DNA of 64,000 nt from Terriglobia bacterium. Lineage in GTDB: Bacteria; Acidobacteriota; Terriglobia; Acidiferrales; UBA7541. The notes below the pieces were generated by a model. The model was not told the origin of the DNA, did not search any database, and saw nothing but the letters and a program-made list of their open reading frames with translations. Position numbers and translations under genes: made by a program. The stretch covers positions 2,528,001-2,592,000 of the forward strand of contig OY968796.1 of the NCBI GenBank assembly GCA_963695545.1. The letters run 5' to 3'. Positions 16,373 through 20,228 of this stretch are shown here, piece by piece. Position 1 is the stretch's first letter. Every line of letters begins with the position of its first letter.

Positions 16373-17215
16373 ATGGCTCGCCTTACCTGGATTGCCGCTT
16401 CCGCGATTTTCCTCATCGGGGGCAGTGTGTCCCCGCTGGCGACGCTCCGCGCTGGCCCAGTTCCTGGGCCCGGCAGCGGCCCCGAAGATCAAACCCCTCC
16501 GAAATCCGACACGTTGCAGGAAGATTCGCGTCTCGCCCTCATCCGCTACGTCGACGGCGAATTCGTCAAGGTCGTCTCGCCGATTCCCGCGGGCAAGAGC
16601 GGTTTCCACATTAAGGCCGGCGAGCCGCTCAACGAGCGCGCTCTCGAAATGGTTCTCCAGGGTCACGACGCCGCCGCTAACCCCGGCGATAAAGTTCAAA
16701 TCACGCGCCTGCTATTCCGCGAACGCCAGATCGCCGTCATGATTAATGGCGGCGGCAACAAGGGCAACAGTTGGCGCGATCACGTGCAGCTAAGCGTCGG
16801 GGGAATGGACCCGTCTCAGACCGGCAATGTCGACACCAGCGCGCCCTCCGTGCAGAACGCGCCCGGCGCCACCCTCTATCTCGATTTCGATAAGCCGCTC
16901 CCGGACATGACTCCTGACGACCTCAAAAAATATCTCTCGGTCATGCTCGATTTCGGCGGCCAGCGCTCCGCCGCCGTCCAGTGGATCGATACGCTTCCGC
17001 CGGCCGTAAAGCAGGCCATCGCCGATAAGCGCGCCGAATATGGCATGACGCGCGACGAAGTCATCGCCGCCATGGGCAAGCCCGAGCACAAAGTCCGCGA
17101 AACCCAGCCCGACGGCACCGAAATCGAAGATTGGATCTACGGCACGCCCCCCGGCAAAACCGTCTTCGTCAGCTTCGATGGCGATCTGGTCATCAAGGTC
17201 GAGTCCTTCCCCTGA
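16373..17215 (+). CDS. Exported hypothetical protein with C-terminal BamE/SmpA-like (GMT..EV...MGKP) domain
   Basis: Signal peptide from ATG 16373; C-terminal GMTRDEVIAAMGKP...EDWIYG...VSFDGDLV. Confidence 0.7.
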   Translation: MARLTWIAASAIFLIGGSVSPLATLRAGPVPGPGSGPEDQTPPKSDTLQEDSRLALIRYVDGEFVKVVSPIPAGKSGFHIKAGEPLNERALEMVLQGHDAAANPGDKVQITRLLFRERQIAVMINGGGNKGNSWRDHVQLSVGGMDPSQTGNVDTSAPSVQNAPGATLYLDFDKPLPDMTPDDLKKYLSVMLDFGGQRSAAVQWIDTLPPAVKQAIADKRAEYGMTRDEVIAAMGKPEHKVRETQPDGTEIEDWIYGTPPGKTVFVSFDGDLVIKVESFP

Positions 17216-17370
17216 TTGCTCCGCGTGCGTTTGCCGCCAGCACGTAGCGCTGTTTTTCTCGCCGCGAACGCAAAATGGAAATCCCGCCACAAGGTTTTCG
17301 GTAGTCTCCGCCCGTCCGCCCCGGTTTGTCGCGCCGCCACACTTCTTCCGGCGTATACTGCCACCCACGA

Positions 17371-17538
17371 ATGCCACTAACGAATGGCACGAAGCTCGGC
17401 CCCTACGAAATCGTTTCGCCACTCGGCGCGGGTGGCATGGGTGAAGTTGAGCTGCATTGCGGGCGTGAGCGAAGCAGGGTTTGCGGAGCGGGAGCCCGCA
17501 GGCGAAATCCTGAGCGAAGCGAAGGATCTGCATGTTGA
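17371..17538 (+). other. Leader ORF (55 aa): duplicated kinase N-terminus fused to a structured insert
   Basis: MPLTNGTKLGPYEIVSPLGAGGMGEV followed by ELHCGRERSRVCGAGARRRNPERSEGSAC*; its stop overlaps the start region of the kinase (ATGTTGA). Confidence 0.7.
17449..17531 (+). repeat. REP-like palindromic insert (GAGCGAAGC-type)
   Basis: TGCGGGC(17458-64)/GCCCGCA(17494-500) stem; ATCCT-GAGCGAAGCGA-AGGAT hairpin (17507-27); GAGCGAAGC occurs twice. Confidence 0.6.
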
Positions 17539-20228
17539 CGCCGGGCACGAAGCTCGGACCTTACGAGGTCGTTGCTGCGCTCGGCGCTGGCGGCATGGGC
17601 GAAGTCTATCGCGCGCGCGATCCGCGCCTCTCGCGCGAAGTCGCCATCAAAGTCCTCCCCGCGCATCTTTCCGCCGAACCGCATCTCCGCGAGCGCTTCG
17701 AGCGCGAAGCCCGCGCCATCTCCGCCCTCAATCATCCCCACATCTGCACGCTCTACGACATCGGCCGCGAAGGCGACACTGATTTCCTCGTGATGGAACT
17801 CGTCGAAGGCGAAACGCTCGCCGCGCGCATCGAAAAAGGCCCGCTTCCTTCCGACCAAGTCCTGCGCCTCGGCTCGGAAATCGCCGACGCCCTCGATAAA
17901 GCGCACCGCCTCGGCATCACGCATCGCGATCTCAAGCCCGGCAACATCATGCTCACGAAATCAGGAATCAAACTCCTCGATTTCGGCCTCGCAAAATTCT
18001 CCGCGCCCGCCGCCGCGGGCGCCGTCCCCGACGCCGCGACCATGCTCACCACCAGACTTCCCGCAGTCCCATCCAAACCGCTCACGCAAGAAGGCAGCAT
18101 CGTCGGCACCTACCAATACATGTCGCCCGAACAACTCGAAGGCGCCGAAGCCGACGCCCGCTCCGACATTTTTTCTTTCGGCGCCGTGCTCTACGAAATG
18201 GCCACCGGCAAACGAGCCTTCGACGGAAAAACCACCGCCAGCGTAATCGCCGCCGTGCTCGCCGCCGAACCCAAGCCCATCTCCGCGCTCCAGCCCATGA
18301 CGCCGCCCGCGCTCGAGCGCCTGGTGAAAATCTGCCTCGCGAAAGATCCCGACGAGCGCTTCCAAAGCGCCCACGATCTCAGCCTGCAACTCAAATGGAT
18401 TTCCGAAGCCGGCTCGCAAGCCGGTGTCGCCGCGCCCGTCGCCGCGCACCGCCGCAGCCGCGAAAAAATCGCCTGGGCGCTCGCCGCCGCGGGTCTGCTC
18501 CTCGCCGCCGTTCTGGCGCTCGTCTTCGCTCGCTCCTACCTGAACCAGCCCCAGCCGCGCGTCACGCGCTTTCTCATCTCCCCGCCTTCCGAGGTCGCGA
18601 GTTGGTTGACCACGACACTTTCGCCGGATGGTCGTCTCCTGGCGCTTGTGGGTGTCTCCAAGGATGGAACGCGAAGAATTTGGCTGCGGCCGCTCGATAG
18701 TGTCGCCGCACAACCCTTGCCCGGAACGGAAGGCGCGCTTTCCCCTTTTTGGTCGCCCGACGGCCTCTATCTCGGCTACTTCGACCTTGACGACGGCACT
18801 CTGAAAAAAGTGGCCGTCTCCGGCGGATCTCCCCAGACACTTTGTAATATCGCGCGAGCCAGTTTGGCAAGCTGGAGTGCCGACGGCGTGATTCTCTTCA
18901 CTCCCGCTTTCCTCAGCCCGATTTGGAAAGTCTCCGCCGCCGGCGGCGCGCCCAGCCAGGTGACCACTCTGGACCATTCACTCGGGGAAGTCTCACACGG
19001 CTACCCTTGGTTCCTGCCGGATGGCCGGCATTTCCTTTACATTTCATTTCGCTCCGCCACGGTCACCGAGTTGTGGCTTTGCGTCGGTTCGCTCGATTCA
19101 AAGGAAACGAATTGTCTGGAGCGCGTCGAGTCACCCGCCGCATACGCTACGCCGGGAGATCTCCTCTACTTGCGTGGAGGAACCCTGATGGCTCAGCCGT
19201 TCGACGCCCACGGACAGAAAATCACGGGCGACGCCGTACCCCTTGCCGACAGCGTGGAGCCTTACGTGCTCGGCAGCCCCGCGACCACTGTGCTGGCCTT
19301 TTCGGCTTCCGAAAACGGCATCCTGTCTTACATTGTCGGGGGACCGCCCGATCAGTTCGAGCTCCATTGGTTTGATCGAAGCGGGAAAAACCTCGGGACG
19401 CTTGGGCAGCCCGCCAGCTACTCCGGTCCGGCGCTCTCGCCTGACGGAACACGAGTCGCCGTGGCTATCATGGACCTGCAAGCCAAGGCCCGCGATCTTT
19501 GGGTCTTCGATTTGAAACGCGGCACAAACTCGCGCCTCACCTTCGATCCTGCCGATGAATTGGCCCCTATCTGGTCCCGTGACGCCAGCCAAATCCTGTT
19601 CTCGTCGGAGCTAAAGGGAGCTCGCGACATTTACGAAAAGGCGGCCAGCGGCCTCGGCGATTCCCAGCTCGTTTTCCAATCGAACGATCAGCGGAAAAGC
19701 GTGAATGACTGGTCGCCCGACGGTCGCTACGTCGTCTACGATCTTTCTACTCCGCCGACCAGCCTCTGGGTTTTGCCCCTTTTCGGCGATCGCAAACCTT
19801 TTCCCTTTATTCAGGGCGCTTACGACGCCAGAGAGGCGCGCTTCTCGCCCAACGGCCGCTTCATCGCCTACACCTCGAGCGAAACGGGAAACTATGAGGT
19901 ATACGTCCAGACGTTTCCGGACCGCAGCGGCAAATGGCAGGTCTCTACCGCCGGCGGCACCTACCCCGTCTGGCGGCGCGACGGCAAGGAACTTTATTTC
20001 GTTTCTAGCGGAGAGCTCATGGCCGTTGACGTCACGACCGACGGGCCACAGTTTGAAGCCGGCATCCCCAAACCTCTCTTCTCCGCCGACTTTCGTCCCG
20101 GCAATTGGAGTTCGGTTTACGCGCCCACCGCCGACGGCCAGCGCTTCCTCGCCCTCACCACCGTCGAGCAGCAATCCATTTCTCCCATCGCCGTCGTCAC
20201 CAATTGGCCCGCGTCTCTGAAGCCCTGA
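17532..20228 (+). CDS. Hanks-type Ser/Thr protein kinase with TM helix and TolB/PD40-like beta-propeller
   Basis: LGAGGMGEVY, VAIKVL, HRDLKPGN, DFGLAK and GTYQYMSPEQ; TM segment; repeated SPDG/WSxDG blades. Confidence 0.93.
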   Translation: MLTPGTKLGPYEVVAALGAGGMGEVYRARDPRLSREVAIKVLPAHLSAEPHLRERFEREARAISALNHPHICTLYDIGREGDTDFLVMELVEGETLAARIEKGPLPSDQVLRLGSEIADALDKAHRLGITHRDLKPGNIMLTKSGIKLLDFGLAKFSAPAAAGAVPDAATMLTTRLPAVPSKPLTQEGSIVGTYQYMSPEQLEGAEADARSDIFSFGAVLYEMATGKRAFDGKTTASVIAAVLAAEPKPISALQPMTPPALERLVKICLAKDPDERFQSAHDLSLQLKWISEAGSQAGVAAPVAAHRRSREKIAWALAAAGLLLAAVLALVFARSYLNQPQPRVTRFLISPPSEVASWLTTTLSPDGRLLALVGVSKDGTRRIWLRPLDSVAAQPLPGTEGALSPFWSPDGLYLGYFDLDDGTLKKVAVSGGSPQTLCNIARASLASWSADGVILFTPAFLSPIWKVSAAGGAPSQVTTLDHSLGEVSHGYPWFLPDGRHFLYISFRSATVTELWLCVGSLDSKETNCLERVESPAAYATPGDLLYLRGGTLMAQPFDAHGQKITGDAVPLADSVEPYVLGSPATTVLAFSASENGILSYIVGGPPDQFELHWFDRSGKNLGTLGQPASYSGPALSPDGTRVAVAIMDLQAKARDLWVFDLKRGTNSRLTFDPADELAPIWSRDASQILFSSELKGARDIYEKAASGLGDSQLVFQSNDQRKSVNDWSPDGRYVVYDLSTPPTSLWVLPLFGDRKPFPFIQGAYDAREARFSPNGRFIAYTSSETGNYEVYVQTFPDRSGKWQVSTAGGTYPVWRRDGKELYFVSSGELMAVDVTTDGPQFEAGIPKPLFSADFRPGNWSSVYAPTADGQRFLALTTVEQQSISPIAVVTNWPASLKP

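Follow-up and report, generated by a model that had tools for sequence, protein, structure and literature searches.

A mobile two-hairpin DNA element of soil Acidobacteriota that displaces and replaces the ends of kinase and tRNA genes

The kinase locus and its two 5' ends

The window studied here is a 64,000-nucleotide (nt) stretch from a Terriglobia bacterium of the Acidobacteriota (GenBank assembly GCA_963695545.1, contig OY968796.1, positions 2,528,001 to 2,592,000, forward strand), in which a gene for a serine/threonine (Ser/Thr) kinase is preceded by a short element of two hairpins and, ahead of the element, by another kinase 5' end. The features at the locus are, in positions of the window:

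17354..17359, forward strand: TATACT, native -10-like hexamer, 11 nt 5' of the first ATG
17371..17446, forward strand: displaced native kinase 5' end (first copy), ending in the target tetranucleotide GAAG (17443-17446)
17371..17538, forward strand: leader open reading frame (ORF) of 55 amino acids (aa) from ATG 17371, reading through the element; its stop overlaps kinase codons 2-3 (-7 overlap)
17447..17528, forward strand: the element, 82 bases, two adjacent hairpins, no ORF of its own
17447..17507, forward strand: hairpin 1, a bulged stem with covariation that begins exactly at the insertion junction; its variable loop holds nested inserts
17507..17527, forward strand: hairpin 2, with AAGGA (17522-17526), resembling a Shine-Dalgarno (SD) sequence, in the 3' arm
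17532..17604, forward strand: replacement kinase 5' end (second copy), with an element-linked start codon, foreign first codons and GAAG at its end
17532..20228, forward strand: intact Ser/Thr kinase of 898 aa, Pkinase domain and PD40 beta-propeller repeats

The double start reported in the original prediction is present as described: MGEV is encoded at 17437 and again at 17595, 158 nt apart, the AAGGA lies in an ATCCT/AGGAT stem (17523-17526 predicted to be at least 96% paired), and the TGA of the leader (17536-17538) falls within the ATGTTGA of the second start at 17532. The fold has z = -2.99, and stops within the element close the kinase frame. Some details required revision. The insert is real, while its proposed extent (83 nt, with a break after GEV) is corrected by the finding that the element begins 2 nt earlier, at the TT of 17447 that marks the foot of hairpin 1 and the true 5' end; the words GAGCTGCAT and GATCTGCAT, taken originally as the insert boundaries, are not conserved in other copies. 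The codon differences between GTK and GEV, seven synonymous and three changing an amino acid, were counted correctly, the seventh synonymous one (Val, GTT/GTC) being made by the junction itself.

The first copy is understood as the native one because a paralog in the same genome (C1:3873895) and the closest ortholog, in a genome of the same genus (L301; body 87% identical, no insert), share its promoter and have only one N-terminus, which is of the first type. In both, TATACT stands 11 nt before the ATG, and it is by this conservation that the predicted -10 role of the hexamer ahead of ATG 17371 is retained; a sigma-70 scan gave no full promoter and no -35 match at the window kinase. We infer that the native start of the window kinase is near-leaderless. 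The first codons of the second copy are foreign. The element is single-copy in the window's genome, and the other kinases there with the same Gly-loop motif (11 of 11) lack it. Contigs from four of four sequencing runs compared (one study, possibly the source) cover 17000 to at least 17712 with 0-1 mismatch; together with the recurrence in 33 assemblies reported below, this excludes the misassembly considered with the prediction. Short joints in those contigs proved to be other kinases, with sides below 30 nt and foreign letters between them. As regards gene order around window 17215-17370, the upstream gene is not followed by this kinase in four same-genus genomes; the kinase itself has therefore moved in this lineage.

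Recurrence, targets and junctions

Recurrence at the GEV junction in relatives had been named as a check on the prediction, and it was found. A DNA search of 41 relatives recovered the insert at that junction in further genomes, and in tRNA genes as well, and a genome-wide pattern scan placed it at the kinase Gly-loop junction in 41 of 44 loci, in 33 assemblies labelled Acidobacteriota; three chance loci of the scan (L044, L046, L047) and duplicate or overlapping loci were dropped. With a pattern independent of the target, 23 of 401 genomes of the class were positive, compared to 0 for the reversed-pattern control. The positives of a phylum sample (5 of 301 genomes) all belong to the window's class, although three loci of the pattern scan are labelled Thermoanaerobaculaceae. 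In one genome the element's 5' half matched 65 times, the control 10 times. The element is carried by at least 122 metagenome stretches, while an exact kinase-specific pattern, too narrow for the purpose, had 0 matches in the metagenomes. Two stretches of viral contigs matched; phages yielded one weak partial match among 50,697 records, and plasmids no element match. The element is a real, widespread and mobile family of soil Acidobacteriota, and the suggestion that a mobile element supplies a replacement N-terminus is borne out by the recurrent junction in the 33 assemblies and by a second copy that is foreign when compared with L301.

The survey gave 243 distinct copies, of which 217 were parsed and 26, not parsed by the anatomy pattern, were left out of the target counts. 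Genes for tRNA or transfer-messenger RNA (tmRNA) account for 88 parsed copies, kinase starts for 47, and 82 lie elsewhere, including the 5' ends of other conserved genes. The typical order is displaced gene end, element, linker, replacement end and rest of the gene. The 5' end of the element is joined after a host tetranucleotide, and the second copy behind the hairpins rebuilds the gene whose original end has been displaced; this layout is shown by tRNA/tmRNA genes, by kinases entered at four codons and by other conserved genes, sometimes in tandem. Specific targeting of the Gly-loop codons, as first proposed, is contradicted by these data: the kinases are entered at GPYE|V, GTK|L and GGM|G besides GEV, and many of the 88 tRNA/tmRNA copies are antisense. 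In tRNA genes, antisense copies at the T-loop or anticodon arm duplicate the 3' end and sense copies at the D-loop the 5' end, with GAAC at the T-loop in 69 of 88. Further duplicated 5' ends belong, judged by their N-termini, to what we take to be clpB, dnaJ, hspR, proS and a 3-hydroxybutyryl-CoA dehydrogenase gene, Pfam having confirmed only the MerR family among them. Some copies duplicate short intergenic stretches.

The 5' junction is sharp and follows a tetranucleotide of the type (G/C)A(A/G)(G/C), whose second position is A in 224 of 228 copies. There are 28 different tetranucleotides (n = 228; GAAC 67, GAAG 36, GAGG 26, TAAG 19 and CAAG 18 among them), and the base after the junction is not conserved (T 66, C 50, A 10, G 6), leaving none common across it. 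An exact duplication of at least 10 nt (10-71 nt) accompanies 103 of 228 copies as opposed to 1 of 219 in the shifted control, and displaced and replacement ends have the same tetranucleotide in 135 of 157 copies. The 3' side of the element is not fixed; the linker after the hairpins ranges from none to about 100 nt. At L373 and L114 the duplication starts right at hairpin 2, in DNA that is intergenic or repetitive and not conserved, and the copy was therefore made from the recipient. For kinases, a gene's own first copy is the best match of its second copy in 15 of 41 cases, and in others the second copy is clearly foreign (4 of 45 GEV junctions had no measurable second copy and were dropped). 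Different element variants stand in tandem within single genes at L036 and L060, evidence of repeated insertion, and tandem arrays occur at L022, L024 and L213. The presence of the element in both orientations relative to transcription argues for action at the level of DNA. An identical element and second copy at two places (L035) is no proof of movement, since the kinase bodies also match over ~800 nt. Replication-strand skew is weak, and element strands are mixed on some contigs.

Element fold and reading frame

The protein-less core comprises the two hairpins in ~47-120 nt. In the alignment of copies 96.5% of stem cells are paired, a count inflated by search patterns that fix part of the stems, and six pairs show changes on both sides; the covariation score exceeds those of 500 of 500 shuffles. 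The closing pair of hairpin 1, which the search did not constrain, is paired in 192 of 205 copies (TA 156, AT 20, GC 10, CG 3). Rfam has no significant family for the element (best E 0.44), and the terminator search at the window element found none. Other short palindromes are nested in element loops or in a displaced tRNA fragment (L003, L007, L033, L059, L377), and those in kinase copies preserve the frame.

The two kinase copies are spaced 122-194 nt apart, yet the spacing is 2 mod 3 in 40 of 41 loci; tRNA units divide 28/19/27 among the frames, without bias. Length architectures tell the same, 12 of 13 keeping one frame in kinases, some by compensating changes of loop and tail, compared to 14/14/13 of 41 in tRNA genes. 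An open frame is seen in 42 of 43 sequences from kinases versus 35 of 83 from tRNA genes; in 44 of 47 kinase-linked copies the leader stop lies at +4 of the second start, and in two there is a TGATG overlap. The one exception is L002, where the kinase frame ends after ~128 codons. The contrast between kinase and tRNA targets points, on sequence grounds, to selection for translation through the element. The coupled leader of the original prediction is thereby supported, though the coupling in kinases looks like rescue of the host gene rather than a dedicated regulatory device, with ribosomes probably still able to reach the new kinase start. In one accepted model of coupling, structure that covers a downstream SD is unfolded (PMC12548453).

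Coupling takes other forms elsewhere. Two hspR-like copies reach a GTGA overlap via a different frame of the element. The clpB-like copies stop early, and at least L237 has its own SD in the linker. At L084:1550 and L359 the insertions are apparently in frame throughout, with no stop, giving a long N-terminal extension and no coupled leader.

Search for a mobilizing enzyme

As a TGTC-tagged repeat, hairpin 2 is common by itself in these genomes, and it adjoins small GIY-YIG genes. It flanks single-domain genes of this kind at L285, L291, L321 and G286:C18; that at L321, in the window's own genome (G000:C1:2099217-2099750), encodes 97 aa at about 2099385-2099675 and has hairpin-2-like direct repeats on both sides. 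L300 (G422:C6:102030-102620) has a GIY-YIG gene lying between two diverged 5' halves of element-like sequence at a distance of 571 nt, and the 5' part of this gene is also duplicated upstream. This is the sole case of a GIY-YIG gene with the whole element, in diverged form, and it is possible that L300 constitutes a captured or autonomous unit. The published Ssn-related motif (SRM), discussed below, is not matched by the hairpins next to local GIY-YIG genes, and NCBIfam assigns the local GIY-YIG protein to no family.

Pfam analysis of 33 of 39 ORFs downstream of duplication-less copies (the six omitted being mostly kinase bodies) revealed no linked enzyme, and searches for Y2, Y1 and GIY-YIG in five high-copy genomes revealed no element-linked one. 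Y2_Tnp is present in one of these five; Y2 was not found in the window's genome with a profile built from two sequences. At L102, L114 and L329 (G422) the element occupies the same site of another repeat adjoining Y1 transposase genes, and at L114, where the Y1 gene is broken, the site lies at its 3' end.

Discussion

Based on the foregoing evidence, we regard it as probable that the element is non-autonomous mobile DNA with one precise and one homology-guided end, and that translational coupling rescues expression of the kinases it enters. A single-strand mechanism is inferred because the junctions are asymmetric, exact at the 5' and variable at the 3' side. The element would move as a folded single DNA strand, from the foot of hairpin 1 and including some downstream flank, the 3' part of which may pair with the same or a homologous gene, or with a few bases of microhomology, and then be extended or recombined. 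Joining of the 5' end to the target strand would fall to a nuclease or transferase that acts in trans on single strands, for which a small Ssn-type GIY-YIG or an HUH enzyme is a candidate. Insertions would survive where the carried copy restores the gene. Given kinases that appear to start almost leaderless and an element SD presumably buried in hairpin 2, ribosomes from the native start could translate the leader, unfold hairpin 2 and terminate at the -7 overlap, and so permit initiation at the new start.

Several observations weigh against this proposal. A recognizable duplication accompanies only 157 of 243 copies, and no 158-nt excision joint and no excised or circular form was found in the contigs of the four runs. 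On the side of the enzyme, clustering of 2794 ORFs from element loci gave no mobility ORF that recurs, and profile searches at 209 loci found GIY-YIG in one, Y1 in two and Y2 in none. The TGTC hairpin is present in 18 of 22 element-positive and 17 of 22 element-negative genomes (hand-matched), small GIY-YIG genes are as common in the negative as in the positive ones, and the published SRM motif matches none of 205 hairpin 2 copies. On the side of translation, kinase bodies are truncated at L045, L050, L054 and L055 despite the kept frame, and the p-values for the kinase frame (8e-11 and 1.7e-5) overstate the case, since the kinase copies are related. In clpB-, dnaJ- and proS-like copies and one dehydrogenase copy the leader stops 23-71 nt before the new start, and coupling is described as weakening when the overlap lengthens beyond -4 (PMC12548453). 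To these is added the inflation of the pairing counts noted above.

An unlikely alternative is a non-autonomous rolling-circle element, IS91-like or of another HUH type, nicked at the foot of hairpin 1, terminating at the next similar tetranucleotide and inserting as a single-stranded circle. A tetranucleotide target, a single-stranded intermediate and flank capture are features of the IS91 family (PMC13181058). Its targets CTTG and GTTC, as given there, complement CAAG and GAAC, which are among the commonest junctions here, but GAAG, GAGG and TAAG occur too. Capture of flanks follows from one-ended transposition, and the tetranucleotide shared by displaced and replacement ends is in keeping with the proposed termination. 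The element, however, has neither transposase nor terIS, and it makes a long target duplication, which IS91 does not produce according to that source. Duplications identical to the recipient, up to 71 nt long, would require an extra step, and the scarcity of Y2_Tnp (one of five high-copy genomes, none of 209 loci) also counts against this reading. Furthermore, the tetranucleotide of IS91 is expected 5' of oriIS, whereas on the CTTG/GTTC strand it comes after the element.

Quite unlikely is an origin as remnants or satellites of tyrosine-integrase islands, in which a small circle of hairpins and gene fragment would serve as attP for a helper integrase, with one lineage per target. The layout does match that of tRNA/tmRNA islands: the Islander definition (PMC4383910) includes a split target restored by a carried fragment, a displaced fragment as end marker, sites in T-loop and anticodon, fragments of the 5' or the 3' end and arrays in tandem, and the predominance of T-loop GAAC among the tRNA copies and the three arrays reported above are in line with it. 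Islands are, however, kilobases long and the element ~100-200 nt; the tRNA units (96-176 nt) are too short to encode a tyrosine integrase, and neither an integrase-like ORF cluster nor a large form recurs (by ORF clustering; no tyrosine-recombinase profile was run). The dozens of tRNA and protein targets served by one element sequence are unrelated and have only a loose tetranucleotide in common, so varied and without a common base across the junction that there is no single att core. The duplication length and the 3' junction vary, and duplications of 10-15 nt occur in non-conserved DNA.

Very unlikely, in turn, is a domesticated regulatory or recoding device of kinases, be it an attenuator, a frameshift, a bypass or a self-splicing insert. 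Leader frame and stop position are conserved, the SD is sequestered, and divergence of both copies is biased to third positions (379 compared to 161 and 106), all as such a device would have it. Against it stand the same sequence placed antisense in tRNA genes, its absence from orthologs and from the 11 other kinases of the genome with the Gly-loop motif, and an insertion codon and element length that vary widely. The bypass, splicing and attenuation offered in the original prediction likewise find no support, given a kinase frame closed within the element, antisense tRNA copies, the lack of an Rfam match and the lack of a terminator; a structured RNA or self-splicing intron is rejected for the missing Rfam match and the antisense T-loop copies. 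An assembly chimera or one-off decayed duplication, to which the single copy in this genome might have pointed, is refuted by the same junction in 33 assemblies and by the spanning contigs, and its probability is negligible.

Among the remaining known systems, the MIRUs of mycobacteria (interspersed repetitive units) are likewise short mobile repeats with an internal frame coupled to the host start and little harm done by insertion (PMC12548453). As described there, MIRUs enter at start codons, have -4 spacing and supply an ORF of their own; the element, by contrast, inserts inside coding regions and tRNA genes, the latter being major targets, makes a -7 overlap with a leader that begins with the displaced native N-terminus, and carries a replacement N-terminus. 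Coupling of frames, for which MIRUs are the precedent, is found in the kinase copies and not in several other genes. The CGTC/TGTC-tagged repetitive extragenic palindromes (REPs) and the Ssn/SRM pairs (PMC3733652, PMC11893778) resemble it in that hairpin 2 is a TGTC-tagged repeat, flanks GIY-YIG genes and is followed by C. The nuclease SsnA cleaves single-stranded DNA on the 5' side of hairpins of this kind and acts on one strand only (PMC11893778). The element has hairpin 1 in place of the tag, and the available portions of both sources describe Ssn/SRM without duplication and without gene-end replacement.

Two further classes were considered and rejected. A miniature inverted-repeat transposable element (MITE) makes a fixed short target duplication, and the duplications here span 10-71 nt. 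An integron attC site has its crossover at G|TTRRRY plus an inverse core; the element does begin TTRRRY, but C precedes it in 88 of 228 copies and the alignments show no inverse core. The terminal inverted repeats of MITEs measure 15-30 bp (PMC3733652), and the ends of the element are not inverted repeats of each other. Altogether, the element falls outside the definitions of tRNA islands, MIRUs, IS91, MITEs and SRMs. Our literature search found no description of it, with most subscription journals outside its reach and the supplements of PMC11893778 and PMC3733652 unread.

It is against this background that we advance, tentatively, a stronger version of the favored mechanism: that of a protein-less, single-stranded "gene-end replacement" element, mobile DNA without described counterpart, whose captured flank acts both as a re-programmable homing guide and as a repair patch. 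If true, the element can colonize tRNA genes and gene families and move foreign starts from one paralog or species to another. An Ssn-type GIY-YIG nuclease sitting on hairpin 2 might be steered to the junction by hairpin 1, and if so these nucleases acquire a role in mobility.

Lastly, our study has a bearing on the open question of how short hairpin repeats (REP-like, MIRU-like) spread without an enzyme of their own. The family comprises hundreds of copies whose junction is exact to the base; there is a consensus for the target, duplications can be measured, and the comparison of tRNA with protein targets is an internal control, so that the mechanism is testable with oligonucleotides and the 97-aa candidate nuclease. 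A mobile element here enters conserved, probably essential genes without killing them, by means of a replacement end and a translation relay, and in doing so it swaps N-terminal codons among kinase paralogs. For genome annotation, such loci resemble frameshifted pseudogenes or partial tRNAs and are probably intact.

Observations on individual loci

Ribosomal protein genes lie at or just 3' of copies L091, L093, L178, L189, L338 and L374; S12 and S4 were identified by Pfam, and the names of the others are presumed. In the window's genome, ARAGORN calls a normal tmRNA overlapping a two-piece form (G000:C1:4086954-4087736), probably a duplicated tmRNA end, and a tRNA of unclear anticodon at 2260191 (G000:C1). 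Fragments of tRNA 3' ends, away from genes and without the element, occur at G000:C1:1310093, 1875975, 3018664, 3131531 and 3537286 and are likely the ends of ordinary islands. In G297 (L358-L377 and others) there is a second subfamily with a swapped outer stem (GGC/GCC), a TCGAG start and up to four tandem units.

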